A stretch of DNA of 52,048 nucleotides from Patescibacteria group bacterium (GTDB lineage Bacteria; Patescibacteriota; Gracilibacteria; Peribacterales; Peribacteraceae). Where the stretch lies: contig JAHISE010000123.1 in the NCBI GenBank assembly GCA_018818235.1, positions 1 through 52,048 of the forward strand, read 5' to 3'. Both the position numbers and the translations under genes were made by a program. The notes below the pieces were generated by a model, which saw only the letters and a list, made by a program, of their open reading frames with translations, ran no database searches and was not told the origin of the DNA. Positions 23,204-51,450 of the stretch are shown here, one piece after another (position 1 is the first letter of the stretch; the number at the start of each line of letters is the position of its first letter).

Positions 23204-23285
23204 ATAAGGATTTGACTTACAAATACCGTTATTAGTGTTTCATTTATATATTTTCTCCAGCAAAGTATCGGATGAACCCTTTTAG

Positions 23286-34384: not shown

Positions 34385-34760
34385 CGCGCCGGCCCTTCTC
34401 CAACCGACCTCACCCCCGGCCCCTCTCCTCTGAGGAGGAGAGGGGAGCTCTACAAAAGGAGAGAACGAACTTTGATTATTCTATTTTTTGAGAGAGCAAA
34501 CTATGAATTCTCCAATAGCAGAGCTCCTAAACCGACCTCACCCCTAGCCCCTCTCCTCTGAGGAGGAGAGGGGAACTCTGCTAAAGGAGAGAACAAACTT
34601 TGAATTCATCAATAGCAGAGCTCCCCTCTCCCATCGGGAGAGGGGCCGGGGGAGAGGGGCGCAAGGGGGTGGGCCGGGGGAGAGGGAGACTCGGGAGTGG
34701 GCCGGGGGTGAGGTCGATTGCTGGGCATCTTCGAGGGGCTAGGGGGAGAGGGAAGACAAG
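34385..34760. repeat. GC-rich hairpin repeat element, copy B (right flank of the pilus block), about 1.5 tandem units, inverted relative to copy A
   Basis: Unit 1 spans 34404-34527 and unit 2 spans 34532-34760. Both start ccgacctcaccc...cccctctcctctgaggaggagagggg. Unit 2 continues through cccctctcccatcgggagaggggccggggg. It is the reverse complement of 22960-23203. Confidence 0.85.
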
Positions 34761-37263: not shown

Positions 37264-37650
37264 TTGATCTGCTCTTTCTATACTCCGGGTTTTGTCCTCC
37301 CGCGTGAGCGAGATGGGTGATCATCTATCTGTGATCATGATTGCTCAATGACCTCAACTCATAATGAGTATGCGGAGGGGTAATCGGTATGACGGAATCA
37401 TCAAATGTTCCGATCACCCAAATCCTCCTTACACCACCTAGAGTTTACCGCCCTCGCCTATGGTGGCGGGGTCCTCGGTGCTCCGAGGCGTTTCACGCCC
37501 CACCAAAGGGGCTCGTCTCTGTGGCACTATTCCTACTACGTCTTTACCTTATATCTGACGCAGCGACGGGTGTTACCCGCTAGGCATTCCGTTGGTGCCC
37601 GGATGTTCCTCTCCCGCATACGCGGGAGCGATCACCTGAAAGAGCAGACC
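37264..37650 (-). ncRNA. rnpB: RNase P RNA, bacterial type A
   Basis: The minus strand carries GAGGAACAUCCGGGC (CR-I, encoded at about 37597-37611), GUGCCACAGAGAC, GGGGCGUGAAACGCC, GGUAAACUCUAGGUGG and ACAAAACCCGGAGUA (CR-V). P1 pairing GGUCUGCUCUUUC / GAAAGAGCAGAUC joins the two ends. Length is about 385 nt. Confidence 0.88.
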
Positions 37651-37763: not shown

Positions 37764-37840
37764 GCCACCTTAGCTCAGTTGGTCAGAGCAACTCACTTGT
37801 AATGAGTATGTCCGGGGTTCGAATCCCCGAGGTGGCTCCA
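37764..37840 (+). tRNA. tRNA-Thr (anticodon UGU), CCA encoded
   Basis: Full cloverleaf. Acceptor GCCACCU/AGGUGGC, D arm GCUC..GAGC, anticodon stem ACUCA/UGAGU with loop CU-UGU-AA, and T arm CGGGG-UUCGAAU-CCCCG. Discriminator U followed by CCA. Confidence 0.95.
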
Positions 37841-39418
37841 TTCTGGAATGACTTTCTCCAAAATGGATTTCCTTACAGAATTAAGGGGTTTATCTAGGGT
37901 TTTGTTCAGTTCTAGCGGGCTTATTACCGATGCCATGTGCTCTTTACCCGTAGCAAGGGTGGAAAATGGCTGTGTTAAGCGCAAACTTACCACTTTATCT
38001 TTCAGTTCTAGCGACTGCCCTATTCTGTGAAGAATAATCAGACGTTCTTTACAGGTTGCAACTGCGTATCGTTCGCAAAGTTTCTCCAAAAATATCAGAC
38101 TGCTTATAAGTTCATCGCGCCATGTCTTTGTCGCGCTTCCGTAATCATCAATACGTTGTTTGCAATTTTTTAAATCATTTTCAAGGCTTTGCATTTTTCT
38201 GTCGAAGGTTTCCGTTGTAAGGGCATTGGGATTTACCAAGCGCATATCAATAAGAGTATCTATTTTCTTTTCGATTTCACTGTGTTCTTTATTAAGATTT
38301 TTAAGCTCTCTTTCTCTGCGCTTCTTTTTATCCGACTGCGACAATTTTAATTCATTAAGACCCCAGTCAATAAAAGACTGCGGTATATGAACTTTTTCAA
38401 TGAAGGCATTTAATTGCTTGTTTACTTCATCTTCCGTCAATCGGCTTCCTTTGTGGCAATTGCGTGAGCAACGAAAGTAATAATAAATGCGTGAACAGTT
38501 TTCACTCTTGATGATTTTCTCCTTAACTTCAAAAACAATACTTCTTCCACATTCCCCGCATTTAATAAGTCCTGGATACGGATTTTCATGTTGATGGCTT
38601 CTCGGCCTCCCTCTGTCACCCAGAATAATCTGAGCTCGATCAAATTCATCTTTTGTAATCATTGGCTCATGTGCCCCCTGCCAAATCTGTTTATCCCACT
38701 CAAACTCTCCATAATAAAACATTGAAGAAAACATGTTATATAGAGTATTAAGCGCGATTGGTTTAATTGTTCCTTTCCTCCCGACCCTAACAGTAAGCCC
38801 CCACTTATTAAGAGCAATCTCGTGTATCTGCTTAACGGTATATGCTTTTGTAAGAAGCAAGTCCCAACACTCACGTGCTTTATCAAAACGCTCAAGGTCT
38901 TTATAAATCTGCTTCTCACCTTTTATGCCTCCGTAATCATTTAGATATCCAAAAGGCGCTGTGGTTGGTCGCCATCCCTGTTTTACTTTCTGCACCATTC
39001 CCCGTTTTACATCTTTGGCAAGGTCGAGTGAGAACTGGGTTGCCATTCCAAACTCAACACTCATCTGTATAACATTATCAGAAGGAATATACGTTTTTTC
39101 AGAAGTAATAATCGCTTTAATGATTTCCTGTTGGAGCATCCACTGTATGCGTCCTCCATCAATAGGATTTCGCGCAAGTCGGTTAAGCCTCCAGCATACT
39201 ATTGCTTCCGCTTTTCCATCTTCAATAAGAGCAATTACTTCATTGAAGGACGAACGTCCAGGTTGCTTTGCCGATCTTTCCTCATCGTATTCTGCAACAA
39301 TTTCATGCCCCTCACGCTCGGCACGTTTTCTGTTTTCATCTCGTTGTCCTTTAATTGAAAGTACCTGTTGGTCTTCTTTGTCTTTGGTACTTTTGCGGTT
39401 ATAGATGATTACTTTCAT
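37793..39418 (-). CDS. Large serine recombinase (integrase)
   Basis: 541 aa from ATG 39418. Resolvase catalytic domain (IIYNRKSTKDKEDQQ ... CWRLNRLARN), recombinase domain, zinc ribbon (CGECGRS ... FRCSRNCH) and coiled-coil tail. The last 15 codons plus the stop (WSHLGDSNPGHTHYK*) are antisense to tRNA-Thr positions 37793-37840. Confidence 0.88.
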   Translation of the reverse strand: MKVIIYNRKSTKDKEDQQVLSIKGQRDENRKRAEREGHEIVAEYDEERSAKQPGRSSFNEVIALIEDGKAEAIVCWRLNRLARNPIDGGRIQWMLQQEIIKAIITSEKTYIPSDNVIQMSVEFGMATQFSLDLAKDVKRGMVQKVKQGWRPTTAPFGYLNDYGGIKGEKQIYKDLERFDKARECWDLLLTKAYTVKQIHEIALNKWGLTVRVGRKGTIKPIALNTLYNMFSSMFYYGEFEWDKQIWQGAHEPMITKDEFDRAQIILGDRGRPRSHQHENPYPGLIKCGECGRSIVFEVKEKIIKSENCSRIYYYFRCSRNCHKGSRLTEDEVNKQLNAFIEKVHIPQSFIDWGLNELKLSQSDKKKRRERELKNLNKEHSEIEKKIDTLIDMRLVNPNALTTETFDRKMQSLENDLKNCKQRIDDYGSATKTWRDELISSLIFLEKLCERYAVATCKERLIILHRIGQSLELKDKVVSLRLTQPFSTLATGKEHMASVISPLELNKTLDKPLNSVRKSILEKVIPEWSHLGDSNPGHTHYK

Positions 39419-39550
39419 AGTTAAGGTGGTTAAAAACCCAAAAGGGCGACCCTGGAACCCCAACATCGGTCGTAGGACTTAGTCGGCAGGATCGCCCTCT
39501 TGGGCGACTACATGAAAGACCTACGAGCTGTGATGTGGGGTTCGATATAA

Positions 39551-40819
39551 TTATAGCACAGGTACAGGTAGGACAAGTGTGCTGAATTTAGGATTCGGTT
39601 CATATATCCATGTTTTACCATCGACATCCTTTTCACGGTGAAGAACCCCAAGATGTACCAGTTGATCAAGGTGGCGCTTCACAGTCTTGTAATTCTTCTT
39701 AAGAATGTCAGAGCCTTCCTTTGCTGTGATCTTTGACTCCTCATGGAAAACTGCAAGTGCTTCTGCTCTCTGTACTGGCATGGATGAGAGGGCTACACGT
39801 TTGATGGTAAGAAACTCCGGTTCACCTACTTCCTCTTTGCCACGCACTATTGCAAGCGATCTGCATAATGCTTTAAGTTGATGCAATGCTCGGAAGGGTT
39901 CTTCTTTTTGTATCTCTTCAATTTCTTCAAATGTTTTTATTTCTCCTTCCTCTGTTTCAAACTGCTGTGTTTTGGAGCGCACTTCACCTCTGGCACGTGC
40001 AACCAATTCGGCAAGAAGGTTAAGTTGTTTACGGATTACAGGATCAACGGGGCTTATATTTACGCCATTTTTTTTAATACCATCACATAGAGCCATAACA
40101 TAGCCGGTTGCTATTTCAGATGCTTTTGTTACGCGTGTTTTAAAGTCGTCAGACCAAGCTATACCAAAACAATGTTCGCGTTGTTCATCTGTAAGCTCTG
40201 GAACTCTAATAGTAAGAAACCTTGCACCAACCATATTCATATATCGTTGTCGCAGATTTAGACCCATTGGAGTAACGCACCCAATATGTGAAAAGGTGGC
40301 TTCGTAGCGAATTGTACCTCTGGCACCACTATGTTTACTGAACGAGCCATCATAGATGCTTACAAGGTCACTTAGCAGTTGTTTTACAGTCTCCTCGGAG
40401 CGCCCAAAGAAGCTTGTGTAATCTTTGCATATAAAACAGCTACCATTGAGTTTCGGTAACAGGTCTTGTGGTTTCTCTTTCTTCCCTAATCCGCTTATAA
40501 ATGGATTGGCAGTTAACACATCAATCATAACTGTATCAGGTGCTTTGGAGAGCAATGACACAAGTTGTGTTTTGTTTGATGAAGGATTGCCTACGAGCAT
40601 TAACCATATCGGGTTTGTGCGTTCAATTTCTTTACTGATATAAACAGCAAGGATAACTTCTACTATGTCGTTATCAAGAAGCCCTATTGATTTGGTATGC
40701 TCCAATAAATCTTCCAGGAGGAGGGGTGGCTTTTTGCCACCCCCCATAGGAGTTTTTGTCCGAACGTCAGCCACTGGCGGGCTGTGTTTTTCGGGATCTT
40801 TTATTTGTGATTCAGACAT
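39551..40819 (-). CDS. P-loop NTPase-like protein with a C-terminal winged-helix domain (putative element replication/partition protein)
   Basis: 422 aa. Deviant Walker A LVGNPSSNKTQL, Walker-B-like CFICKD, and a C-terminal wHTH-like segment KKNYKTVKRHLDQLVHLGVLHRE. The family assignment is uncertain. Confidence 0.6.
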   Translation of the reverse strand: MSESQIKDPEKHSPPVADVRTKTPMGGGKKPPLLLEDLLEHTKSIGLLDNDIVEVILAVYISKEIERTNPIWLMLVGNPSSNKTQLVSLLSKAPDTVMIDVLTANPFISGLGKKEKPQDLLPKLNGSCFICKDYTSFFGRSEETVKQLLSDLVSIYDGSFSKHSGARGTIRYEATFSHIGCVTPMGLNLRQRYMNMVGARFLTIRVPELTDEQREHCFGIAWSDDFKTRVTKASEIATGYVMALCDGIKKNGVNISPVDPVIRKQLNLLAELVARARGEVRSKTQQFETEEGEIKTFEEIEEIQKEEPFRALHQLKALCRSLAIVRGKEEVGEPEFLTIKRVALSSMPVQRAEALAVFHEESKITAKEGSDILKKNYKTVKRHLDQLVHLGVLHREKDVDGKTWIYEPNPKFSTLVLPVPVL

Positions 40820-41019: not shown

Positions 41020-41181
41020 TTAAGGAGGTTTTTCTGGGTCTAAAACGAATTGCATTACATCAAGTAGGCTCTCTCCATATTCCCTGGCCTGTTCATTTGT
41101 GAGCTTTTGCCCGAACTCCTTTTCCCAAAGTTCACCAAATGTGCCGGCAGATTTATCTGTCAGTCTTATCTTTGATTCCAT
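41020..41181 (-). CDS. Small hypothetical protein (53 aa)
   Basis: This ORF is below the track cut-off: MESKIRLTDKSAGTFGELWEKEFGQKLTNEQAREYGESLLDVMQFVLDPEKPP. Its start overlaps the stop of the upstream gene (41166-41411). Confidence 0.35.
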   Translation of the reverse strand: MESKIRLTDKSAGTFGELWEKEFGQKLTNEQAREYGESLLDVMQFVLDPEKPP

Positions 41182-41411
41182 AATAGAGATTTAAGGTGCT
41201 TATAGGAGGAGAGCAATTGTGAAGGAACTATGAGAATTTCTCTTCCACTTGCAAATGACATCAGGAGCTCTTCTGTTCCGTCTGTCCTTTCAAAACAAAA
41301 TGCTTTCCTGTTTTCATTAATCTTTTCGATCCCAACAAGAGGAACGCCTGAGGCATATAAAAATGTCGCCTGAGGGAGATCTGATATTTGTAGAGTTTCA
41401 TAAGTATGCAT
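41166..41411 (-). CDS. Small hypothetical protein (possibly DUF5659-like)
   Basis: 81 aa. The pattern LQISDLPQATFLYASGVPLVG...KAFCFER...LLSSYKHLKSLL resembles small phage/plasmid DUF5659-type proteins as I recall them. This is not verified. Confidence 0.55.
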   Translation of the reverse strand: MHTYETLQISDLPQATFLYASGVPLVGIEKINENRKAFCFERTDGTEELLMSFASGREILIVPSQLLSSYKHLKSLLWNQR

Positions 41412-41484
41412 AAATTAATTGGGAATGTTGGCACGCCCAATTTTATTTATAAAAAGCAGAAACAAGTCCTGACTCAGACCTGAC

Positions 41485-42186
41485 TCAGACCTGACCTACG
41501 GTAATATTGGCCATCTCATTAAGATATTCCTCATTAACTCTGCAACCCCCGCTTGTGGTGGGCTCTAGGAACTCACGCCCCTTCGGGCTCTTTCCAACCT
41601 TATTGTTAATTGTTCGCAATGCTTGTTTAAATGGATCAGCCTTGCCTCCAATTTGTATCTTTTGCTCCTTTAATCTGATGATTAGCTCTTCTTTTAGAAC
41701 TATTCCCTCACGGTCAGGCAAGCTTATTAAGTCAATTAAATGTATTCCAAAGTTTTTTCTACGTTGTTTGGGATCAGTTAGCTGAACCCATTTACCACAC
41801 ACATGAATTCCAGCATTTTGACCATCGGCATAATATGCCCATGCTGGTTTAATGTTTTTTTGACAGTTATTTGACGGTATAGGATTATTGAATCTACTTT
41901 GAATCCAGTCCCTTAGCAACAAGAGGCCATTTTTAAAATTATGTGACATTGCTTCCCATTCATAAATTCTTTTCTCTTCTTCATGCCCAATTATCATTTC
42001 GTATTTTCTTGTATATTCATCATTAATATATCCAGGAATTTTACCTAAATTTGCACAAATTAAGGATTCCATCTCAAGAAGTTTAGCCATCCATCTTCTC
42101 CACTCAATATCTTTGTCAGATGGCATAGGCATCTGTCCCTCCAGAGTTTCTATCATTTTAAGATAATCATTTTCATTCATGCTCAT
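41485..42186 (-). CDS. Hypothetical protein
   Basis: 233-aa ORF in the co-directional string with no recognisable motif. Confidence 0.6.
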   Translation of the reverse strand: MSMNENDYLKMIETLEGQMPMPSDKDIEWRRWMAKLLEMESLICANLGKIPGYINDEYTRKYEMIIGHEEEKRIYEWEAMSHNFKNGLLLLRDWIQSRFNNPIPSNNCQKNIKPAWAYYADGQNAGIHVCGKWVQLTDPKQRRKNFGIHLIDLISLPDREGIVLKEELIIRLKEQKIQIGGKADPFKQALRTINNKVGKSPKGREFLEPTTSGGCRVNEEYLNEMANITVGQV

Positions 42187-42475
42187 AATGCCTCGATTCT
42201 ACACTCTTTTTGCGCGTTGAGGCATAAACTCCCCCTAAACATTTTCTACACGTGTATGGGGCAAAATTGACGCTATACAGGGCTTCGTACGGCTTACCAC
42301 AGTAGCTACAGAGGAAATAGTACCTGTATCCGTTTTTGAGGTTGGTTAGCTTGCCTATAACTCGCAATATTTGTGATCCGGCTCCCAGAGTCACCTCCAG
42401 TGAATTCTTTGGAATTGCCACTTTTACATCACGAATATGCAATTTCTCACACTGTTCAATTAGAGGCTTTCTCAT
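42173..42475 (-). CDS. Hypothetical zinc-ribbon protein
   Basis: 100 aa from ATG 42475 (track start is TTG 42523). It has a CSYC...CRKC pair. Confidence 0.55.
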   Translation of the reverse strand: MRKPLIEQCEKLHIRDVKVAIPKNSLEVTLGAGSQILRVIGKLTNLKNGYRYYFLCSYCGKPYEALYSVNFAPYTCRKCLGGVYASTRKKSVESRHYEHE

Positions 42476-43073
42476 TTTTTTTAGATAGAATGGAATCCTG
42501 ATTAATCTGCATGTTCTGAGCAACTATGGCATTCTTTGCTTTAACATGGATTGGTGGAGACGAGAGATTACGAAGTGCTTGTGAGAGACGGATTATTTGA
42601 TCATTAGCCATCTCAATTCCTTTACGTGTTTCCTGCATCAACTTGATGGATTTTTCGTCGTGAGAGTAGGAGAGGTGCGTATCTTCACCGCTCATATCAA
42701 TCTTGTATTTCGTAAATTGAAACATCCTTTCGTAGGATGCGACCATACTCCAAGCTGATACTAAGCGATCAATCAGTAAGCGTTTGATGGGTGTAGAATT
42801 ACCAAACTCAGTAGTGAGATCGCCTTGCAATCGTATTGTTGCGAGTCGCAAATCAGCATCAGTGTTTATGGGAGCAAGACCCCACTTCTTCACAACGTAG
42901 AAAGCAACAAATTTGTCTTTGATTGAATGATATTCCTCCTCTTCCAGCTTCGTACGCTTCTTATCACGAAGTTTCCAATAAGCCTCCTCCACCATCCGAT
43001 CCTGATAGTCCCCATCAGACTCTTTGAGTTTCTTTGGTTGTTCTTTTTTGATGATTTCGAGCATTTTAGTCAT
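42456..43073 (-). CDS. Hypothetical protein
   Basis: 205 aa from ATG 43073 (track start is TTG 43079). It is the first gene of the leftward module and is divergent from the rightward array. Confidence 0.6.
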   Translation of the reverse strand: MTKMLEIIKKEQPKKLKESDGDYQDRMVEEAYWKLRDKKRTKLEEEEYHSIKDKFVAFYVVKKWGLAPINTDADLRLATIRLQGDLTTEFGNSTPIKRLLIDRLVSAWSMVASYERMFQFTKYKIDMSGEDTHLSYSHDEKSIKLMQETRKGIEMANDQIIRLSQALRNLSSPPIHVKAKNAIVAQNMQINQDSILSKKNEKASN

Positions 43074-43105
43074 GCTCAAATTTTATCTAAATCCTTAGGA
43101 GTAGG

Positions 43106-43128
43106 TTGTCATGGACATAAAGTCCTAG
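43106..43128 (+). repeat. Junction motif copy a: TTGTCATGGACATAAAGTCCTAG
   Basis: Ends 8 nt before ATG 43137. Confidence 0.85.
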
Positions 43129-43136
43129 TTAAAGAT

Positions 43137-43763
43137 ATGATTGTCCCTATGAAAGAAGAAGAACATTCTACCAAGGCTGGAATAGTATCCGAACTTCTCG
43201 ATGGAATTATAGGGTGGATTCTAATTATTGCCATAATATGGGTAGAATTCGGTGGGATTTATCATTCTTTTAGTAAACACGGTATTACGAACGGGATAAT
43301 TGCAACTGCTGTGCCTCCTGTGTCTTGGTATAGATCAATCGAATTTTTCTTTCATAAAGACAAATTACCTCTTCCAATTGAGTATACTGAAGATAGAGAT
43401 AATTTCCTTGAATCACTCAAATTATTAAGGGAAGCAGCAGAACTATCTCAGCCACCCAACAAATCTGATATTGCCTTTGGTATTCCAATAGATCAAGAAC
43501 AACAAATATTCTCAATGATTGAAGAGGGCATAGAGCTAAGCAATAATGTAGGCGATGATTTTCTTGTTTTTGCTCATCCTGAACTAAAGAGATATTACAA
43601 AGATATTTTAATACGTGGTAATGAATTGTACTTTGAAGGAGCCCAAAATTCTTACAAGGACACCGGAGTATTAAAACAGATCACAGGAAATAAACTTGTA
43701 ATTGAGTGGATAGATTGGTGGAATGCAAACAATAGAAAAATCGGAAATAGAATTTTTGATTAA
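43137..43763 (+). CDS. Hypothetical membrane protein
   Basis: 208 aa from ATG 43137. TM segments are IIGWILIIAIIWVEFGGIY and GIIATAVPPVSWY. The track start at 42927 lies inside the opposite-strand gene. Confidence 0.6.
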   Translation: MIVPMKEEEHSTKAGIVSELLDGIIGWILIIAIIWVEFGGIYHSFSKHGITNGIIATAVPPVSWYRSIEFFFHKDKLPLPIEYTEDRDNFLESLKLLREAAELSQPPNKSDIAFGIPIDQEQQIFSMIEEGIELSNNVGDDFLVFAHPELKRYYKDILIRGNELYFEGAQNSYKDTGVLKQITGNKLVIEWIDWWNANNRKIGNRIFD

Positions 43764-43787
43764 TTTGCATTGCATTGGATTGGTTTA

Positions 43788-43810
43788 CTGTCATGGACAT
43801 AAAGTCCTAG
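43788..43810 (+). repeat. Junction motif copy b: CTGTCATGGACATAAAGTCCTAG
   Basis: Ends 18 nt before ATG 43829 and is followed by gagga. Confidence 0.85.
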
Positions 43811-43828
43811 GAGGAATAGGATTGTCTT

Positions 43829-44110
43829 ATGAGCCTAGAAGGATTACCAGTTGTATTTGTATCTGCTTTTGTTGTCGTATCTTTTGTATATGCATTTTTA
43901 TCTGCATTTACCACTGTATTTTATCGAAATAAATATCCCGAAAATTTAAGTAGAATAGAATCCGAAATACTGCAAGGAAGAGCAGGTATTGGAAAGAGGT
44001 TCGCATACTTCTTCTTCGGATTACTTTGTTCCTTCATGGCTCCACCAATTTATATTATTGCTGGATTGGTGACATTAATTGCATATCTAGCACATATAGT
44101 AATCGTATAA
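43829..44110 (+). CDS. Small hypothetical membrane protein
   Basis: 93 aa with 2-3 predicted TM helices (PVVFVSAFVVVSFVYAFLSAF, FFFGLLCSFMAPPIYIIAGLVTLIAYLA). Confidence 0.55.
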   Translation: MSLEGLPVVFVSAFVVVSFVYAFLSAFTTVFYRNKYPENLSRIESEILQGRAGIGKRFAYFFFGLLCSFMAPPIYIIAGLVTLIAYLAHIVIV

Positions 44111-44165
44111 TTTAGAAGCCACATTCCATCCAGTTTAAAATTCTCACACGTAGCATACGATAACG

Positions 44166-44188
44166 TTGTCATGGACATAAAGTTCTAG
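44166..44188 (+). repeat. Junction motif copy c: TTGTCATGGACATAAAGTTCTAG
   Basis: Ends 1 nt before the stop codon of the minus-strand gene 44190-44510. Confidence 0.85.
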
Positions 44189-44189
44189 G

Positions 44190-44510
44190 TCAACCATCCC
44201 AGAATTCCCGAAAGAATTGCTCATTTCTTTCTTTTACCATTGGATTAAACTTCCTGTTATTTTCTCTTATTTTCCACAAATACGACTCTTTATAATTTGA
44301 AGCAATATAATCTGAAAGATCATCTATGTTTTGGCATTCAAACAATATTGATTCAATAATCTTTTCACTACAGTAATCAAAAGGTGGTTTAGTAATTAAT
44401 ATGAGTTTCAAGTAGTCAGCAGTCGGCTTATCTGGCCTTTGCTTTTTTGCTTTATTGTAAAGACTCATACATGTCTTCTTAGGATCGAAAATTTTGGAGA
44501 ATAGTCCCAT
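44190..44510 (-). CDS. Hypothetical cytosolic protein
   Basis: 106-aa ORF on the strand opposite its neighbours. Confidence 0.5.
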   Translation of the reverse strand: MGLFSKIFDPKKTCMSLYNKAKKQRPDKPTADYLKLILITKPPFDYCSEKIIESILFECQNIDDLSDYIASNYKESYLWKIRENNRKFNPMVKERNEQFFREFWDG

Positions 44511-44541
44511 TCAATACAAGTATATCTACACATAGGAGTTC

Positions 44542-44566
44542 TTGTCTAATGGACACAAAGTCCTAT
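44542..44566 (+). repeat. Junction motif copy d: TTGTCTAATGGACACAAAGTCCTAT
   Basis: Variant with a 2-nt insertion. Ends 10 nt before ATG 44577. Confidence 0.75.
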
Positions 44567-44576
44567 AAGATAAATA

Positions 44577-44912
44577 ATGTTTACCAAGATGTTGAAATTA
44601 GGGATTAGTAAACGGCTACTAACCTATGCTGGAAGCAATACAAGTCTGATTGTTGCCATTTGCACTATTGTAACTATGTTTGTTGTTACTGCACATATGA
44701 GAAGTAATTTTAATTCTAGGGATGGCGCGCTAAATACAGCATTAAGCAAAAATGGAGGTGTCCCTGTAGAAAATGCTGAGCTATATCATAAAATTGATGT
44801 GGATAGGGGGAATTCCTTATACAGAAAAATATGGACTTACGATGCATTGATTCTTGTGAGCGGAGTATTACTTATTAGTGTGGCAAGAAGGCGGGAGACA
44901 AAAATAGATTAA
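44577..44912 (+). CDS. Small hypothetical membrane protein
   Basis: 111 aa with two TM helices (SLIVAICTIVTMFVVTA, ALILVSGVLLISVA). Confidence 0.55.
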   Translation: MFTKMLKLGISKRLLTYAGSNTSLIVAICTIVTMFVVTAHMRSNFNSRDGALNTALSKNGGVPVENAELYHKIDVDRGNSLYRKIWTYDALILVSGVLLISVARRRETKID

Positions 44913-44935
44913 TAATTGCAACAAGCCTATCTGTC

Positions 44936-45181
44936 TTAATACTCATAAATTCCACTACCACGTGTATTTCCTTCGTTATACATATCAATATAATCTTCTT
45001 CGGTATATTTAATGTTGCTTTTAGGTGGCACGACATAAGTATTTACACTTTTTTCTGGACGACCAACGAGGCCAAAAATATTTAAGAGCGTCCCAATAAC
45101 TATCACAACAATAAGCCAAACCAATAAGCCTTTGCCTATACTTTTCTCCATGTGAGACAGTATATCAAAATAATATCTCAT
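44936..45181 (-). CDS. Small hypothetical membrane protein
   Basis: 81 aa with one TM helix (GLLVWLIVVIVIGTLLNIFGLV). It lies on the minus strand. Confidence 0.5.
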   Translation of the reverse strand: MRYYFDILSHMEKSIGKGLLVWLIVVIVIGTLLNIFGLVGRPEKSVNTYVVPPKSNIKYTEEDYIDMYNEGNTRGSGIYEY

Positions 45182-45197
45182 AGACAGAAAGCACTAG
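45176..45197 (+). repeat. Junction motif copy e (degenerate): TCTCATAGACAGAAAGCACTAG
   Basis: Overlaps the start codon of the minus-strand gene and ends 20 nt before ATG 45218. Confidence 0.55.
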
Positions 45198-45217
45198 GAA
45201 CGAATAGAATACATTGC

Positions 45218-45451
45218 ATGAAAAAACTGGTAACAATCTTGAGCTTATTGATCTTAACTGCTTGCGGAAGCAGTGGCGGTTATTCTGATAATGAGTACGA
45301 GGAAGATGGCTACACTGGAAATCCTTATTCAGAAGGCACTGGGCATTATGCAGGATTTGAATGGGCAGAAAGAACCGGTGGTAACTGTAATGGAAATTCG
45401 CAATCCTTTAATGAAGGATGTGAGGAATATTATCAACAAATTGGAGAATGA
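45218..45451 (+). CDS. Small lipoprotein
   Basis: 77 aa from ATG 45218. Lipobox LILTAC in MKKLVTILSLLILTACGSSGG. Confidence 0.65.
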   Translation: MKKLVTILSLLILTACGSSGGYSDNEYEEDGYTGNPYSEGTGHYAGFEWAERTGGNCNGNSQSFNEGCEEYYQQIGE

Positions 45452-45714
45452 AAAAAATGATCGCATGCCTGGCTTTGGTTGTTCTTCTAAGTGGTTGTTA
45501 CAGCGAAGAAGATATTACTGATGCAGAAGATTCAATTTTAGATCAAGTTAGGGATCTTGTGTATAACTGCGAACAAGATCTTAGCTATGACGGCGTGTTA
45601 ATGGATGAAGGATGCCTAGAAGACGAATTCTACTATGATGGCGATATTTCCAATTGTGAAACCACACCAAGCTTTATGATAGTAGATGGTGACTGCATTT
45701 TAGGTGGACTATAG
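45448..45714 (+). CDS. Small lipoprotein
   Basis: 88 aa. Lipobox LLSGC in MKKMIACLALVVLLSGCYSEED. The start overlaps the upstream stop (ATGA). Confidence 0.65.
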   Translation: MKKMIACLALVVLLSGCYSEEDITDAEDSILDQVRDLVYNCEQDLSYDGVLMDEGCLEDEFYYDGDISNCETTPSFMIVDGDCILGGL

Positions 45715-45777
45715 GACACTCTATTTATGTGTAGAACGCTTTACGTGGCTAATACAAGGGAGTATAAATTATGCAAT

Positions 45778-46578
45778 ATGAGTAAGTTTTTCATTGCCAC
45801 ATTTGCAGTCGCTACAATTTTGGCAGGGAATATGGTACTTCCTAACAATTTGCAGCCAATTGAATTTGTTCAAAAAGTAGAAGCGGCAGTAAGAGTAAAA
45901 GGATATTACCGCAAGAATGGAACATATGTAGCTCCTCACTATCGTTCAAGTCCTGACAGTAGCCCGTACAACAACTATAATTATCCTGGTAATACAAATC
46001 CGTACACTGGTAAAACAGCCACAGGAAACCCTGACACTTATCTAAAGAATTACATAAAGAGTACTTATACTATTCCCTCTTACAATTATACTTTGCCATC
46101 TTCTAGGACTACTACATCCTCTTACAGCTTACCTTCATATTTATTATCTCCATCATCTACTAACAATACTAATGTTTCAGTCCCAGCAAATGCCCGTCTA
46201 AATATTTTTGGCGATGGTTATATCTGCAATCATGGTTACAAAAAAAACTACTCGAATGGTAAATGTGAGAAAGTATTTGTTCCTCTAAATGCTAGATTAA
46301 GTGTCTTTGGGGATGATTATATATGCAATAGTGGCTATAAGAAGAATTATTCGACAAGTGTTTGTGAAAAGGTATATATCCCAGCAAATGCTCATCTTAG
46401 TGTTTTCGGAGATGATTATTGGTGTGACAGCGGATTCAAAAAAAATTACTCGACTGGCAAATGTGAAAAAATCTATATACCACCTAATGCACATTTCAGT
46501 ATATTTGGAGATGATTTCTTTTGTAACATTGGATATCAAAAGAATTACTCAACAAACACATGTTCGCCAATCAAATAG
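45778..46578 (+). CDS. Secreted protein with four tandem 33-aa Cys-containing repeats
   Basis: 266 aa from ATG 45778 with a signal peptide. The repeats follow VPANARLNIFGDGYICNHGYKKNYSNGKCEKVF and occur 4 times. Confidence 0.7.
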   Translation: MSKFFIATFAVATILAGNMVLPNNLQPIEFVQKVEAAVRVKGYYRKNGTYVAPHYRSSPDSSPYNNYNYPGNTNPYTGKTATGNPDTYLKNYIKSTYTIPSYNYTLPSSRTTTSSYSLPSYLLSPSSTNNTNVSVPANARLNIFGDGYICNHGYKKNYSNGKCEKVFVPLNARLSVFGDDYICNSGYKKNYSTSVCEKVYIPANAHLSVFGDDYWCDSGFKKNYSTGKCEKIYIPPNAHFSIFGDDFFCNIGYQKNYSTNTCSPIK

Positions 46579-47210
46579 GAATATATAGGCCAATAGAAAC
46601 TTTTGCACTTTTTGTGATATTGGTAAGCATTCCGTCAATAACTTTAGCCCACCCAGGACGTACAGATAGCTCCGGTTGCCATACTTGTAGAACCAATTGT
46701 GAGCAATGGGGTCTGAGTTATGGCGAATATCATTGTCACAGAGCAAAAAGTGTACCACAGCCTGAGCCTCCAATACGCAGTCACAGAGGTTTCCCAACAG
46801 GATACACAGAGCCTGCTCCTGATTATGCAAATTCTAAGCCACAATGCCCTGCAAATTCATCCTTGGTTGGTGCAACATGCTTTTGTAACACAGGATATGC
46901 CAAATTTAATAGTTCTTGTATTAAGATACCAACCAATGCTCACGCAGTCACAAGTGGGGCAGATGCATGGGAATGTGACGGTGGCTATACAGAAAAAGGC
47001 AATAACTGTGTACCAGAGCCCGTCCTAGTCGTAAGCCCATCAACATCATCAAGTTCCTCCTCACAGTCTTCATCTGCAAGTATTATGAAACAAACTTCTG
47101 TTTCAGAAGATAATGTAACCAGTCAATCACCTCTTCCGAATTCTATCCCATTATCCGAATCAAAAAGAGGTTTATGGAATCGTATTTGGTCATTTCTCTT
47201 CGGCTCATGA
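46560..47210 (+). CDS. Secreted YHYH-like domain protein with a Cys-rich module and conserved C-terminal tail
   Basis: 216 aa with a signal peptide ending SITLA. The motif HPGRTDSSGCHTCRTNCEQWGLSYGEYHCH resembles the YHYH motif. The module CPANSSLVGATCFCNTGY...IPTNAHAVTSGADAWECDGGY...CVPEP and the tail KRGLWNRIWSFLFGS are paralogous to the C-terminus of the next gene. Confidence 0.65.
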   Translation: MFANQIGIYRPIETFALFVILVSIPSITLAHPGRTDSSGCHTCRTNCEQWGLSYGEYHCHRAKSVPQPEPPIRSHRGFPTGYTEPAPDYANSKPQCPANSSLVGATCFCNTGYAKFNSSCIKIPTNAHAVTSGADAWECDGGYTEKGNNCVPEPVLVVSPSTSSSSSSQSSSASIMKQTSVSEDNVTSQSPLPNSIPLSESKRGLWNRIWSFLFGS

Positions 47211-48571
47211 AGTATCTATATATTGCTATTATCGGTTTACTTACTAGCTTCTATATAAATAATATTCCACAAACTTTAGCATTTGGCGAATGTGATCAGT
47301 ACGGAGTGATGGCTAAATATAATTACGATGGTACTTGTAGCTGTACATATGGTTGGAAATTTGACAATACACCTTTTGGCAAACGATGCGTAAGCACTTA
47401 TGATTATTGCAGAAATAGAATGGGAGTAATGGCTACATATGATAGTTTATATGACAAATGTGAATGCTTGGCTGGATATGTTTTAAAAAGAGATATGTTT
47501 GGTGATTTGTCGTGTATGAGCGGCGAAGGCGCATGTCATGATCAATTGGGTATACATTCCAGTTATCAATCGTTCAATGACAAATGTGTCTGTGATTACG
47601 GTTATTCCATTGTAAATGGGAAATGCGTTGATCTCGATCAGCAATGTTGGAATCAATTGGGGTATGATTCAAGTTATAATGTGCTTTATGACACATGTGA
47701 GTGCAACTCTGGTTATATTATTGATGGAGGTCAATGTAAAAATGCGGATATAGTATGCAGAAATGAGCATGGATATTATTCATCTTATAATTCTTTAATC
47801 AAAAAATGTGAATGTGATGATGACTACACTCTAGATGAGTATGGGGAATGCGTTGAAAAACAACATAATGTTTATTTTCGAGTGATTGAACTGGATGATG
47901 ATAACAACGAAGCAATTATAAAAAGTGACTATGATGGTTCTTATTATCACGTAAGTTATGGTTTAGGTTGCCTTTCATTCTGGAGATACGAGGACAAACA
48001 AATTGTTGTAAATCTGGGAACGGATTATTCATTGGATACCTGGGATAAGATTGTCCTTCAAGATAATAATCAGACGTGCAACATTGTCACAAAAGAAAGA
48101 GTGTACTCAGGCTTTTCTTTAAAAGAAGAAGATGAAGAATTGGCAGAAGAAGAGGAGGAAGAGGAAATCATAAACAATTATTATGTTCCGACTCCCACAC
48201 AAAATTTTGAGGAAGTAACAGTCCCTGCTCCTATACCAAGTTGCCCACCAAATTCCACTCTCATTGGAGACACTTGTACATGCAATGAGGATTATACTTC
48301 CTTCAATGATGCTTGTTTCAAGATGCCGGCTAATGCCCACGCAGTCATAAGTACAACAGATGCTTGGGAATGTGATGATGGGTTCATCGAAGAGGAAAAC
48401 GGTTGTATCCCCGAGCCAGTCAGTGCTCCAACTGTTACAAGCTCTTCCTCTAAATCAGAATCATCAATACACTCATTAGAAAATGAATCGGATTCATTGA
48501 TTGTAAAAGCTAGTCCTAAACCTGAGAAAAAATGGGGCTGGGATCGTTTTTGGTCGTTGTTCTTTAAATAG
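47207..48571 (+). CDS. Secreted Cys-rich repeat protein
   Basis: 454 aa from ATG 47207, which overlaps the upstream stop. It has a signal peptide and about 6 repeats of C..(Q/N)LG..S.Y....D.CEC..GY. The C-terminal module and the tail KKWGWDRFWSLFFK are shared with the previous gene. Confidence 0.7.
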   Translation: MKYLYIAIIGLLTSFYINNIPQTLAFGECDQYGVMAKYNYDGTCSCTYGWKFDNTPFGKRCVSTYDYCRNRMGVMATYDSLYDKCECLAGYVLKRDMFGDLSCMSGEGACHDQLGIHSSYQSFNDKCVCDYGYSIVNGKCVDLDQQCWNQLGYDSSYNVLYDTCECNSGYIIDGGQCKNADIVCRNEHGYYSSYNSLIKKCECDDDYTLDEYGECVEKQHNVYFRVIELDDDNNEAIIKSDYDGSYYHVSYGLGCLSFWRYEDKQIVVNLGTDYSLDTWDKIVLQDNNQTCNIVTKERVYSGFSLKEEDEELAEEEEEEEIINNYYVPTPTQNFEEVTVPAPIPSCPPNSTLIGDTCTCNEDYTSFNDACFKMPANAHAVISTTDAWECDDGFIEEENGCIPEPVSAPTVTSSSSKSESSIHSLENESDSLIVKASPKPEKKWGWDRFWSLFFK

Positions 48572-48585
48572 ACATAAACTCCTAG
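48566..48585 (+). repeat. Junction motif copy g (5'-truncated): AAATAGACATAAACTCCTAG
   Basis: Overlaps the stop at 48569-48571 and ends 19 nt before ATG 48605. Confidence 0.65.
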
Positions 48586-48604
48586 AAGATAGTAAACTAG
48601 ACGC

Positions 48605-48802
48605 ATGGCAACATTGCTTCTTAAAAGTTTGGTAACAGGCTACATATTGGTTTATGGCTTTTTATTTGTAGTATTTGCAAGAGATGTCGATAGTGGTAAT
48701 TTTATCTTTTCCTTTTTAATGCCTATAGTTGTATGGCCAGCTACTCTAATTGTTTCGGCTCTAGCTCTTTTAGTTTTTTTGGCAATTAAAGAAAACAAAT
48801 AG
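48605..48802 (+). CDS. Small hypothetical membrane protein
   Basis: 65 aa with two TM helices. Confidence 0.5.
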   Translation: MATLLLKSLVTGYILVYGFLFVVFARDVDSGNFIFSFLMPIVVWPATLIVSALALLVFLAIKENK

Positions 48803-48810
48803 AACCATTG

Positions 48811-48834
48811 TTTCTCATGGACACAAACTCCTAG
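48811..48834 (+). repeat. Junction motif copy h: TTTCTCATGGACACAAACTCCTAG
   Basis: Ends 28 nt before ATG 48863. Confidence 0.8.
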
Positions 48835-48862
48835 CATAGTTAAACTCACATGCTTTGAACAT

Positions 48863-49099
48863 ATGGACAATAGCTCCCAGAGAGACGATACTTGTCAGTG
48901 CATGCAAAAGAATCCATGGATTATTATTGGCTTAGTCGTAATTGGTTTTGTTTACATTATATTGACCTCAAGTAATAGTGGCTATAAATCAGGTCTTGAT
49001 GAGGGATACGCAGATGGATATGACGATGGGTATAATGAATGCTATATAATGATTGATGATATTTGTGGTGGTGGTGCTACATGTGCTGATTACTACTAA
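48863..49099 (+). CDS. Small hypothetical membrane protein
   Basis: 78 aa with one TM helix (PWIIIGLVVIGFVYIILT). Confidence 0.5.
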   Translation: MDNSSQRDDTCQCMQKNPWIIIGLVVIGFVYIILTSSNSGYKSGLDEGYADGYDDGYNECYIMIDDICGGGATCADYY

Positions 49100-49145
49100 G
49101 AAATATAAAAGCAACAATAACCATTGTGTTGCTCTTCTCTATTAA

Positions 49146-49168
49146 TTTCTATGGACACAAACTCCTAG
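49146..49168 (+). repeat. Junction motif copy i: TTTCTATGGACACAAACTCCTAG
   Basis: Followed by a GC-rich repeat and then the minus-strand TA genes. No plus-strand gene lies downstream of it. Confidence 0.8.
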
Positions 49169-49193
49169 CAACACCCCGCCATCACAGTCCTAG

Positions 49194-49315
49194 CTTCCTC
49201 CAGTAGGGAGCTCCAACCTGCGCAGCAGGTTGGCTCTTTGGTCGAGTCCTGTTGCTTCGGTTGGCAGGCCACGTCACTTGCGAGCATCACTATTGAGTGA
49301 TTGTGGCAGGTCACT
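49194..49315. repeat. GC-rich repeat R1
   Basis: cttcctccagtagggagctccaacctgcgcagcaggttgg...gtcctgttgcttcggttggcaggcca is homologous to 51338-51450. Its 3' part (ggccacgtcac...gtggcagg) resembles the cores at 30723 and 33624. Confidence 0.75.
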
Positions 49316-49338
49316 TCAAAATAGATTAATTTATTACA

Positions 49339-49623
49339 TTACCCAAACAAATTCTCATGATTATTCGTTGCATGAAATGTGATAGTTTCATTGTTATTGT
49401 TATCAACTCCAAGTTCATATAAAAGAATCCAGTCCCCTTCCACATGACAATCACGCAAATATTTCCATTTGCCATGTAATTGATGATCATTGAATTCAGA
49501 TGGAAGAGTTTTCTTTTGGATTAGTCTCAGCATTATCGCTTTAAGCTTTTCAATATCTTTTCCGGATTTTTTAATTCTTTTGTAATCTCTTCTGAATCTT
49601 TTTGTACTCTTTGGGATTCTCAT
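49339..49623 (-). CDS. Type II toxin, YafQ/RelE family
   Basis: 94 aa. The segment FNDHQLHGKWKYLRDCHVEGDWILLYE matches the YafQ signature (H..G.W.g.ReCHi.pD.LLiY). It lies 2 nt downstream of the antitoxin gene. Confidence 0.8.
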   Translation of the reverse strand: MRIPKSTKRFRRDYKRIKKSGKDIEKLKAIMLRLIQKKTLPSEFNDHQLHGKWKYLRDCHVEGDWILLYELGVDNNNNETITFHATNNHENLFG

Positions 49624-49625
49624 AA

Positions 49626-49904
49626 TCAGAGTTTATCCAGATGATCGAAAAATTCATCCTTATTTTTAGAGATTTTTACACCTTTCCCCTTCGAGGCATC
49701 TTCCAAGTCCTTTTGAAGTTTAATATTCGGAACTTCATCCAACCTGACCGGAGAAGGAGAAAAAGGCAAACCGCGGGATCTTTTAATCTCCATATAAAAC
49801 AGAATGATTGCCTGCGATGGTTTGATTCCTTGCGTCTTTAGGATTGTTTCAGCATCCTTTTGCAACTTTGGATCTATACGTTGCTGGATTCGACCTGATG
49901 ACAT
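49626..49904 (-). CDS. Type II antitoxin, RelB/DinJ family
   Basis: 92 aa. The ribbon-helix-helix-like N-terminus (IQQRIDPKLQKDAETILKTQGIKPSQAIILFY) resembles DinJ. Confidence 0.75.
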   Translation of the reverse strand: MSSGRIQQRIDPKLQKDAETILKTQGIKPSQAIILFYMEIKRSRGLPFSPSPVRLDEVPNIKLQKDLEDASKGKGVKISKNKDEFFDHLDKL

Positions 49905-49988
49905 AGCTAATATTGGGATAAGGCAAATGTACTACTATAGTACTATCTTTGTCATTTGAAATCAATAGTATTTTCACAGGGCTATTAT

Positions 49989-50234
49989 ATGTGTGATTTC
50001 CAATAAGCCATTCAAAGTAGTAAGTAAGGAGCTTAAATTCTATCGAAAAAAAGGCATTCCTATTCCTCATGTTCACGCGGATGATAGATTTACGGAAAGA
50101 GTTAAGATGAGCAATAAACAAAAACTTTTTATCGTAATTGTGACAAATGTGGTAAGGATATGGAGACAACATATGCTCCCAACCGCCCTGAAAAAGTTTA
50201 CTGCGAAGACTGCTACCTCAAAGAGGTCTATTAA
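49989..50234 (+). pseudogene. Decayed zinc-ribbon protein gene (frameshifted)
   Basis: Frame A reads KPFKVVSKELKFYRKKGIPIPHVHADDRFTERVKMSNKQKLF. After a 1-nt shift at the a5-c-t5 run, frame B reads YRNCDKCGKDMETTYAPNRPEKVYCEDCYLKEVY*. A third frame at the 5' end reads MCDFQ*. Together these resemble one conserved Cys-rich protein broken by indels, and the first CxxC is lost (HVHADD). Confidence 0.5.
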
Positions 50235-50256
50235 ACTCATGTATACAAACTCCTAG
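50235..50256 (+). repeat. Junction motif copy j (variant): ACTCATGTATACAAACTCCTAG
   Basis: Lies directly after the pseudogene and 125 nt upstream of the Fic gene ATG. Confidence 0.6.
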
Positions 50257-51304: not shown

Positions 51305-51337
51305 AGCTTCAACTTCGCTCACCGCAGGCAGTCATAA

Positions 51338-51450
51338 CTTCCTCCACGAGGGAGCTCCAACCTTCGCAGCAGGTTGCCGACCGAAGCTAGCTCGCAGGTG
51401 AGCTTAGGTTGGCTTTTCGACGAAGTCCTGCTGCTTCGGTTGGCAGGCCA
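51338..51450. repeat. GC-rich repeat R2 (direct copy of R1 with a ~35-nt insertion)
   Basis: cttcctccacgagggagctccaaccttcgcagcaggttg[insert]gcttttcgacgaagtcctgctgcttcggttggcaggcca. Confidence 0.75.

Follow-up and report, generated by a model that had tools for sequence, protein, structure and literature searches.

The 52,048-nucleotide (nt) stretch of DNA analyzed here (the window) is part of a Peribacteria chromosome that carries an integrative element of approximately 11.5 kilobases (kb) at a tRNA-Thr gene, with a large serine integrase, a replication protein of the primase-helicase type and small backbone genes. A short motif, AT[G/A]GACA-N-AAA[C/G]TCCTAG, occurs in the window as nine plus-strand copies between 43.1 and 50.3 kb, and it is probably the signature transcription-control site (promoter/operator) of a group of serine-integrase elements in Peribacteria, where it would switch on small add-on genes. 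Such elements are integrative and probably self-replicating, and they insert at tRNA 3' ends by means of a large serine integrase. In the mechanism that we propose, the T[G/A]GACA portion of each motif copy located before cargo would serve as a sigma70-type -35 box, with a TAnnnT-type -10 box 17-18 base pairs (bp) further on and a start codon 6-9 nt beyond that, such that each small gene or operon would form its own leaderless transcription unit, as does a phage 'moron'. The motif would most likely be bound by one sequence-specific protein, probably encoded by the element and asymmetric or monomeric, which would block or gate initiation at both the cargo and the backbone promoters. At copies that lack a promoter, the same bound protein might stop read-through, as mycobacteriophage 'stoperators' do.

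The nine plus-strand copies, which had been listed in an earlier note on this DNA, were recovered by three types of search. The 20-mer TCATGGACAYAAASTCCTAG with up to three mismatches gives eight matches, all on the plus strand (43109-50256), compared to 0.01 in shuffled sequences. A weight matrix derived from the nine copies scores them at 24.7-34.5, whereas the rest of the 52 kb reaches no more than 12.6. Finally, a repeat search of the window groups the same nine copies into one family. Three further copies were found among the sub-threshold matches: a degenerate copy (g', 48858-48880, plus strand) located directly before the conserved start of a gene for a 78-amino-acid (aa) protein, a minus-strand copy (44532-44554) that serves the minus-strand 106-aa gene and lies back-to-back with copy d, and a minus-strand motif core (40747-40761) inside the 422-aa gene of the element backbone. 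The total is thus 12 motif copies within approximately 10 kb, with none in the flanking DNA. Among the nine copies of the repeat family, start-to-start spacings range from 249 to 3388 bp.

Most of the earlier description of these copies stands, including the distances of 8-28 nt from copies to start codons, the placement of copy c 1 nt before the stop codon of the 106-aa gene, and the lack of copies inside the overlapping genes at 45218-48571. Other parts need correction. A division into left and right subtypes had been proposed, but there is no clean split; the variable positions 13 (Y/R) and 17 (S) change semi-independently, with copy d reading ACAAAGTCC and copy f reading ATAAACTCC. Copy e overlaps a minus-strand start codon, as had been stated, only if an 81-aa open reading frame (ORF) is used, whereas gene callers begin this gene at 45151 (71 aa), a start with its own TATACT box 6 nt upstream. 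The earlier note had also exchanged copies h and i, in that copy h (49146) is the one that precedes both the GC-rich repeat and the toxin-antitoxin pair, and copy i (50234) comes after a zinc-ribbon pseudogene, with the toxin-antitoxin pair on one side and a Fic gene on the other. The assertion that the motif keeps its orientation regardless of the genes is partly right, but the minus-strand 106-aa gene has its own inverted copy. A terminator-like hairpin of this same gene (44183-44204, minus strand) overlaps copy c, with a T-rich tail that is the motif sequence GGACATAAAG in reverse complement.

As judged from sequence, the motif copies that precede cargo genes look like sigma70-type promoters of leaderless genes, with the A of each cargo ATG as the predicted transcription start. 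In eight copies, T[G/A]GACA resides 17-18 bp upstream of a -10-type hexamer; this hexamer conforms to TAnnnT in six, and a start codon follows 6-9 nt on in seven. When only the nine originally listed copies are considered, six carry TAnnnT 16-19 bp after the GACA hexamer (background 4.5%), and in five of those six the start codon of an ORF of at least 65 aa is positioned 6-8 nt past TAnnnT. Two further copies have boxes close to the consensus. A separate scan for sigma70 promoters picks out copies a, b, d, e, f, g and g', as well as the minus-strand copy of the 106-aa gene. A -10 box located 6-9 nt before a start codon is a signature of leaderless mRNAs. The coordinates of these copies, and of the other features of the element, are listed below.

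Features of the integrative element and its attachment sites (positions in the window)
Feature	Position	Strand	Details
tRNA-Thr(TGT), integration site (attL)	37764..37840	+	Found by ARAGORN and Rfam
Large serine recombinase (integrase)	37793..39466	-	Pfam Resolvase, Recombinase, Zn_ribbon_recom; PHROG integrase 3e-57
422-aa replication-type protein, C-terminal winged-helix-like region (weak signal)	39551..40819	-	
Motif core and GC-rich inverted repeat in 5' part of 422-aa gene	40723..40762	-	Core CGGACAAAAACTCCTAT, 40746-40762
Backbone operon: 207-aa, 116-aa (zinc ribbon), 233-aa, DUF5659 and 53-aa genes	41020..43079	-	Same order in L037, L038, L047, L054-L058
Backbone operon promoter	43074..43105	-	CTCCTAAGGATTTAGA-TAAAAT (-10 at 43080-43085), 6 nt, ATG 43073
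Copy a, 'control' copy	43106..43141	+	TGGACA-18-TATGAT, 7 nt to ATG 43149 (208/204-aa gene)
Copy b	43788..43822	+	TGGACA-17-TAGGAT, 6 nt to ATG 43829 (93-aa membrane protein)
Copy c, orphan without -10 box	44166..44188	+	Convergent junction before stop of minus-strand 106-aa gene
Inverted copy (-35 box at 44548)	44519..44554	-	TAGACA-18-TATACT, 8 nt to ATG of 106-aa gene (44510)
Copy d	44544..44578	+	TGGACA-17-AATAAT before 111-aa gene (ATG 44577 or 44589)
Copy e	45175..45210	+	TAGACA-18-TAGAAT, 7 nt to ATG 45218 (77-aa lipoprotein)
Copy f	48563..48598	+	TAGACA-18-TAAACT, 6 nt to ATG 48605 (65-aa membrane protein)
Copy g	48812..48846	+	TGGACA-17-TAAACT, upstream of ATG 48863
Copy g', degenerate	48858..48892	+	TGGACA-17-GATACT, 9 nt to ATG 48902
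Copy h, terminal copy of element, without -10 box	49146..49168	+	
attR	49169..49233	+	P arm (CATCACAGT..TCCAGTA..), core GCTCCA 49210-49215, hairpin 49213-49233
Copy i, terminal-type copy of older decayed unit	50234..50256	+	Right after stop of zinc-ribbon pseudogene, as in locus L010
Second attR-type repeat	51329..51450	+	Decayed motif before it, inside 3' end of Fic gene

The same geometry is evident in related loci, including L047 (4861, TAGACA-18-TAGGCT-6-ATG, lipoprotein), L037 (5873, TAGACA-18-TACAAT-9-ATG), L034 (5827, TGGACA-18-TAGCAT, and also 4214) and L009 (688, TGGACA-17-TAGGAT-9-ATG). Orthologous units keep both boxes while their flanks differ, and the ATG downstream of g' is the start that is kept in the L047 homolog. 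The orientation of each gene-fronting copy is the direction of local transcription on both strands, such that the 106-aa gene, the only minus-strand cargo gene with a copy, has one that points the same way as the gene. Orphans c, h and i reside at sites where plus-strand transcription would meet converging genes or leave the element. Host genes of the window (read upstream of 1257-4490, 4597-5994, 6069-14081 and 14295-18581 on the minus strand, and of 19056 and 34892) exhibit (TTGnnn-17-)(GA)TAyAAT promoters and A/C-rich leaders of 25-30 nt that end in ..CAAACA, with neither Shine-Dalgarno sequences nor the motif. Thus, host genes are leadered and element genes are predicted to be leaderless, which would give this genome two styles of translation initiation.

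The motif is restricted to one group of elements. When one genome from each of 185,579 species was scanned with the pattern ATGGACAYAAASTCCTAG, 33 exact loci were obtained, 24 of which reside in metagenome-assembled genomes of Peribacteria or Peregrinibacteria, with no more than three matches per genome. From these counts, we concluded that the motif is neither a generic promoter nor a chance occurrence, and the possibility raised earlier that it might stand before housekeeping genes throughout the genome was not borne out. Related elements gathered by using the 422-aa and 207-aa proteins (L035, L037/L057, L038, L039, L047, L053, L054, L056 and L058-L067) share the backbone order 207-116-(233)-DUF5659-53-422-integrase wherever their contigs reach that far, and the integrase gene and a tRNA-Thr, tRNA-Gly(TCC) or tRNA-Leu gene overlap at their 3' ends. 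Matrix matches in the loci examined fall only within the elements, with none in approximately 91 kb of flanking chromosome even at a lenient threshold. In the distant relatives L040-L042, whose homologs of the 422-aa protein are 38-41% identical, a search for a different motif found no repeated one. A match obtained in a motif scan of viral contigs looks like chance, and a search of viral contigs with the 422-aa protein returned no relatives. A literature search on the motif sequence, DUF5659 and Peribacteria integrases likewise found nothing.

Two characteristics of the motif suggested to us that its function extends beyond that of a -35 box. First, among 25 copies chosen independently of the DNA pattern, 17 of the 18 positions are conserved and only one is free, and the 11 bases past the -35 box are conserved to the same degree as the box itself. 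Promoter spacers normally drift. Second, three classes of copies that have no -10 box, which we call control, terminal and intragenic, are kept in every related element, and this conservation spans elements with GC contents of 42% to 53% and with different tRNA targets. The conserved 'spacer' and the conserved copies without a -10 box together imply a bound protein, and therefore that the motif acts as an operator. An unlikely alternative is that the motif is simply a strong promoter with no dedicated regulator, composed of a -35 box for the host sigma70 and a favored spacer that spread by duplication along with new cargo genes, and that the promoter-less copies have decayed. Such a promoter would fit the -35/-10 geometry and the leaderless starts, and the orphans c and i and the tandem g/g' arrangement do resemble leftovers of module insertions, but the spacer bases would not be expected to be as invariant as the -35 box, nor would decay produce promoter-less copies that persist in every element.

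The three classes occupy fixed positions in the operator arrangement that we favor. Control copies, represented by copy a in the window and by equivalents in every related element, are found on the strand opposite to the 207-aa gene, 30-35 nt upstream of it, and are always preceded by ATCTAAATCCTTAGGAG, which is the backbone promoter on the other strand. This promoter, composed of CTCCTAAGGATTTAGA-TA(A/C)AAT followed after 6-7 nt by a start codon (again leaderless), is kept in the window, L037 and L038, where the -10 box is either TAAAAT or TACAAT. This backbone promoter also represents a motif copy, degenerate and inverted, which abuts copy a, and the two have a central CATG in common. Terminal copies flank the attP arm on its outer side, at the far end of the element, and are seen in L035, L037, L047, L054, L056 and L058. 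Intragenic cores are located 55-75 nt into the replication gene, on the strand of this gene and in an otherwise variable stretch of the protein, and are conserved as DNA at the same position in eight relatives (including L035, L037, L038, L039, L047, L053 and L054).

Several observations weigh against the promoter/operator explanation. The control copies of L037, L054 and L056 point into a converging gene, of which they cannot be the promoter, and copies c, h and i have no -10 box and are not complete sigma70-type promoters, such that a promoter alone does not account for any of these copies. Sigma70-like matches in the region number 37, compared to 33.5 in shuffled sequences, such that only their coincidence with the motif is significant. 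Moreover, no DNA-binding regulator was found, in that the backbone proteins yielded no Pfam, PHROG or PDB sequence matches other than the weak winged helix of the 422-aa protein, and an AlphaFold model of the 207-aa protein (helical, with a predicted local distance difference test score of 84) gave no significant fold match in the PDB. Finally, in elements of the common tRNA-Gly type, the final integrase codons (..RSLCP and a stop codon) are read from the reverse strand of the terminal copy, and thus the conservation of this copy could be due in part to coding.

The identity of the putative binding protein bears on another explanation, wherein the 422-aa replication protein binds to the motif, the intragenic copy and its palindrome form an origin similar to those with iterons, and the other copies provide autoregulation or a coupling of replication to transcription. 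We consider the 422-aa protein to be a replication protein because its longer homologs carry N-terminal Toprim or Prim-Pol primase domains; its homologs are annotated from Peribacteraceae, Peregrinibacteria and Patescibacteria. In favor of this explanation, the protein contains the only winged-helix DNA-binding signal of the backbone, albeit a weak one, and its long homologs are primase fusions. In addition, the operon that contains its gene has a motif copy in the promoter region, and the core and perfect palindrome are conserved as DNA in a variable part of the gene. This inverted repeat (GGGGTGGC-AAAAA-GCCACCCC, 40723-40743) follows the intragenic core, and at 55-95 nt into the gene the two together exhibit conservation at the DNA level, including T/C covariation in the arms. 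The core and palindrome could be an origin or a roadblock operator. Iterons, however, are clustered and phased direct repeats at an origin, whereas the copies in the window are single, are 250-3400 bp apart and are neither phased nor clustered, and only the replication-gene copy beside the palindrome looks origin-like. Most copies in the window also have exact promoter geometry before unrelated cargo genes. An iteron or origin role for the intragenic copy is possible but leaves the dispersed promoter copies unexplained, and as a general account of the motif we regard this explanation as quite unlikely. It is a special case of the operator explanation, from which it differs only in the choice of binder. 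Approximately 80 nt downstream of the intragenic motif and palindrome in L053, ARAGORN calls an 89-nt 'tRNA-Val' within the replication gene (1087-1175), which is probably a false positive, although it falls within this same structured region.

The boundaries of the elements were established by examining their attachment sites. The core at the 3' end of the tRNA-Thr gene, GCTCCA (37835-37840), is common to the far junction, and end-to-end comparison of each element reveals a shared core of 6-10 nt (GCTCCA for tRNA-Thr, ACCCGCTCCA for tRNA-Gly). A copy of the tRNA-Thr 3' end was sought at the far end of the element and was not found, which fits a serine integrase with a 6-bp core. We read the hairpin within attR as a displaced tRNA terminator. 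In other genomes, GC-rich sequences that recur ('fam1/2/3') follow those motif copies that are the most perfect, and the last 20 nt of these sequences match the 3' end of the resident tRNA-Gly (GATTCCnGTnACCCGCTCCA). Downstream of the tRNA-Gly gene, both L031 and L022 carry units of motif plus remnant in tandem, and L015 has a comparable pair in which there is a tRNA-like remnant. A comparison of strains fixes the boundary in one relative, in that L058, L060 and L064 do not differ as far as ...ACCCGCTCCA but diverge right after it.

We considered whether the GC-rich sequences after the motif (fam1/2/3, and 49169-49330 in the window) might be RNA genes driven by the motif. This was rejected because the final 20 nt of these sequences are identical to, or resemble, the local tRNA 3' end, because their reverse strand encodes a conserved integrase tail, and because strains diverge exactly after the core; there is also no Rfam match. 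These sequences are attR junctions.

The integrase ORF extends 48 nt into the tRNA-Thr gene and, in the integrated state, ends inside the tRNA (...IPEWSHLGDSNPGHTHYK and a stop codon). The excised (attP) form would end instead in another conserved tail, WS[S/G]LLE..T[V/A/M]M.., encoded by the reverse strand of the P arm and with its stop codon in the terminal motif. Comparison of the window (37793-37840 joined to 49169-49215) with L058, L035, L037 and L047 reveals that the reconstructed excised forms yield this same tail, and that the ORFs of the window and L047 stop at the motif TAG. A natural junction of the attP type is provided by tandem elements in L058, where the flank is a second element (1-1624) whose integrase ORF crosses the core, P arm and motif (...WSGLLETITTMMGGSRSLCL) and stops at a TGA that is the reverse complement of the motif TCA. 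Because the ORF crosses the attachment core, integration swaps the C-terminus of the integrase (the last 15-25 codons). The terminal motif copy at the end of the integrase gene is convergent with it and is 33-41 nt from the core, and is not an att half-site.

An attR-type repeat occurs twice in the window (49185-49271 and 51329-51450, 84-90% identical) and brackets a 2.1-kb segment that contains YafQ/RelB, the frameshifted zinc-ribbon remnant (49993-50233) with copy i, and a gene for a helix-turn-helix Fic protein. In the close relative L047, there is a single attR-type repeat and none of the bracketed genes. This segment looks as if elements had accumulated in tandem at one and the same site and decayed there, and the presence of two attR-type copies rather than the one of L047 indicates that the right-hand part of the interval is older accreted material.

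The arrangement of small genes between motif copies had previously been likened to the cassettes of an integron, with the copies as cassette junctions. As a description of gene content, this comparison is partly apt, in that unit content and order are not invariant among related elements: backbones that are 78-92% identical in the 422-aa protein are joined to cargo that is either unrelated (L037, L038) or partly shared and reordered (L047), and two modules recur. The 3' end of copy a is the exact point at which homology between backbones ceases. In the 78-aa module, which consists of a motif core, a -10 box, the gene and a terminator hairpin, identity between the window and L047 is approximately 90% (86% by BLAST); the module has different neighbors in each and is homologous from the motif core to just before copy h. 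The 77-aa lipoprotein unit, whose gene is the first of the operon at 45218-48571, is also present in L034, where homology begins with the first base of the motif core, continues through TAGAAT and ends at the stop codon, with none in the flanks. As a mechanism, however, integron-like exchange at the motif finds no support. Pfam and PHROG searches revealed no tyrosine IntI, and the large serine recombinase is the only recombinase. No attC-like palindrome or fold was found, and the motif itself (18-20 nt) is asymmetric and folds no better than shuffled sequences. Integron cassettes mostly lack promoters and are expressed from a common one, whereas seven to eight of the units described here each have a -35/-10 pair. 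The alternative offered in the earlier note, an element-specific promoter or operator, is the one supported by the promoter geometry, the restriction to the element and the conserved spacer.

A broader version of the recombination proposal, in which the motif is a site-specific recombination site for the capture, excision or reordering of cassettes by the serine recombinase or another enzyme, appears highly improbable to us. The differing cargo, the end of homology at copy a, the two modules whose homology is bounded by motif copies, and the motif copy that is always beside the attP arm would all be expected of such a site. Yet an att site of a large serine recombinase has two imperfectly symmetric half-sites of approximately 20-25 bp around a central dinucleotide at the crossover, whereas the motif is asymmetric, has no such dyad and is unlike the P or B arms, its internal copies have neither a core nor a partner arm, and the terminal copy lies well outside the crossover core. 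Furthermore, L058 has a long cargo operon with two copies only (control and terminal) and none between genes, and in the g/g' tandem the module was inserted 23 nt downstream of the motif and not within it. Strains that are identical to the window show no rearrangement: the window matches NCBI assembly GCA_043811675.1 (contig JBDRMY010000034.1) over their whole overlap, and contigs that carry its 93-aa protein show 0-1 mismatch over the shared stretch. It is only marginally less doubtful that the motif is an exchange point for promoter-gene-terminator modules between co-resident elements, via the serine recombinase or another element protein; this is compatible with the data because module boundaries coincide with motif copies and because an invariant copy lies beside attP. 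If true, it would represent a cassette system unrelated to IntI/attC in bacteria of the candidate phyla radiation (CPR). We regard the units as moron-like modules that share one family promoter, and the 20 bp that they have in common may favor homologous exchange between them.

That the motif acts at the level of RNA, whether by marking a site of processing, by forming a leader or, in polycistronic transcripts, as an anti-Shine-Dalgarno sequence (CUCCU), is scarcely credible. The motif does contain CUCCU, is often located 0-50 nt past a stop codon on the same strand, and sometimes provides that stop codon with its TAG. However, its folding z scores are only -0.4 to -1.5 relative to shuffled sequences, there is no Rfam match even at E=1, the predicted starts lie downstream of the motif such that it would be absent from cargo mRNAs, and host genes in the window have no Shine-Dalgarno sequences to sequester. 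Two other types of promoter were considered and rejected. Promoters for sigma54 carry GG at -24 and GC at -12 (TGGCAC-N5-TTGC). The motif resembles these in having TGG-N-TCC elements one helical turn apart, but it reads TGGACA-N5-TCCT, the GC is lacking in all copies, and the conserved downstream TAnnnT would be unexplained. For a promoter of a T7-like single-subunit RNA polymerase, which would be approximately 20 bp in length and contain the start site, there is no RNA polymerase-like gene in the element, and the fixed -10 boxes favor the host enzyme.

The remainder of the window places the element in its chromosomal setting. The first 37.7 kb are ordinary chromosome, with type IV pilus genes, PurH, a histidine kinase and, close to the tRNA-Thr gene, RNase P RNA (37265-37647). 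Near pilin-like (N_methyl) genes, secondary BLAST matches reveal intergenic repeats of 74-134 nt that are 92-93% identical (23077-23210, 34402-34475 and 34530-34603) and bear no relation to the motif. From the tRNA onward, the element has a lower GC content and begins with the genes for the serine recombinase, the 422-aa and 53-aa proteins, DUF5659, and the 233-aa, 116-aa and 207-aa proteins, all on the minus strand. These are followed by the plus-strand array of small genes with the motif copies, and then by YafQ/RelB, the zinc-ribbon pseudogene and the Fic gene. Within the cargo, the largest genes (283, 216 and 465 aa, 45727-48571) encode cysteine-rich repeat proteins with signal or transmembrane N-termini, and internal 99-nt tandem repeats are present at 46181-46555. 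These three proteins share a C-terminal module that is also present in one cargo gene of L047, and they are likely to be surface or secreted proteins.

To our knowledge, Peribacteria, like other CPR bacteria, have not been cultivated, and there is next to no information on how their genes or mobile elements are regulated. The motif thus offers a concrete promoter/operator for CPR bacteria, with predicted leaderless starts that are unlike the leadered genes of the host. It is also a simple sequence tag that can be used to find this element family and tRNA-side islands in metagenomes. The self-contained units represent a route by which small genes for secreted proteins, membrane proteins and lipoproteins, with likely functions in host interaction or at the surface, can be added to CPR genomes. 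Moreover, the integrase tail that crosses attP and the motif and palindrome in the replication gene suggest how the element might sense whether it is integrated or excised. What emerges is not a new class of recombination system, and the analogy to integrons is corrected accordingly.

Comparisons with known systems help to define which features of these elements are familiar. Like integron attC arrays, the cargo region contains co-oriented small genes punctuated by a repeat, with a toxin-antitoxin pair nearby and content that varies between relatives. Unlike those arrays, there is no IntI and no imperfect palindrome of 57-141 bp with R and L boxes, and the units have their own promoters, with the repeat located 5' of genes as a promoter instead of 3' as a recombination site. 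The integrase resembles those of the phiC31/Bxb1/A118 type, which occur in phages and integrative conjugative elements and target the 3' ends of tRNAs or other genes, in its Resolvase, Recombinase and Zn-ribbon domains, in its short core (6-10 bp) without long direct repeats, and in the similarity of its P arm to its B arm. It differs in that the integrase ORF crosses attP and a conserved motif that is not part of att lies immediately outside the P arm; we know of no description of either feature for the large-serine-integrase family. Much like PhoB/OmpR boxes and the T4 MotA box, an element of approximately 18-20 bp replaces or overlaps the -35 box at a fixed distance from a normal -10 box. 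In this case, however, no such activator was identified among the element's proteins, the motif is not a tandem direct repeat, and promoter-less copies exist. The cargo units are like phage morons in being small accessory genes with their own promoters, positioned between or after backbone genes and varying among relatives, and at least one unit (the 78-aa module) has a terminator hairpin. Classical morons have unrelated promoters, whereas these units share a family-specific promoter/operator of 20 bp and would be leaderless.

The closest analogy, and the best-described parallel, is provided by the operator/stoperator sites of Cluster A mycobacteriophages. Those sites are 13 bp in length and asymmetric, number more than 20 per genome, and are located at promoters and in short intergenic gaps, with an orientation tied to transcription; they are bound by a monomeric two-domain repressor of the L5 gp71 type (PMC9283540), which has a helix-turn-helix and a second DNA-binding domain. 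There are several differences, in that the site described here is 18-20 bp rather than 13 bp, most copies in the window belong to complete promoters instead of serving as bare roadblocks, and the element is a small, non-phage integrative element of a CPR host in which no gp71-like repressor was found. Binding and elongation arrest are putative here. The two systems nevertheless have in common many asymmetric copies within one element, positioned in promoters (overlapping the -35 box) and in short gaps, with an orientation that follows transcription, as seen here in the cargo copies of both strands and in the replication-gene copy. Taken together, these observations support the view that the motif is a promoter/operator specific to mobile elements, distributed in the manner of stoperators, in a bacterial lineage that is poorly known.

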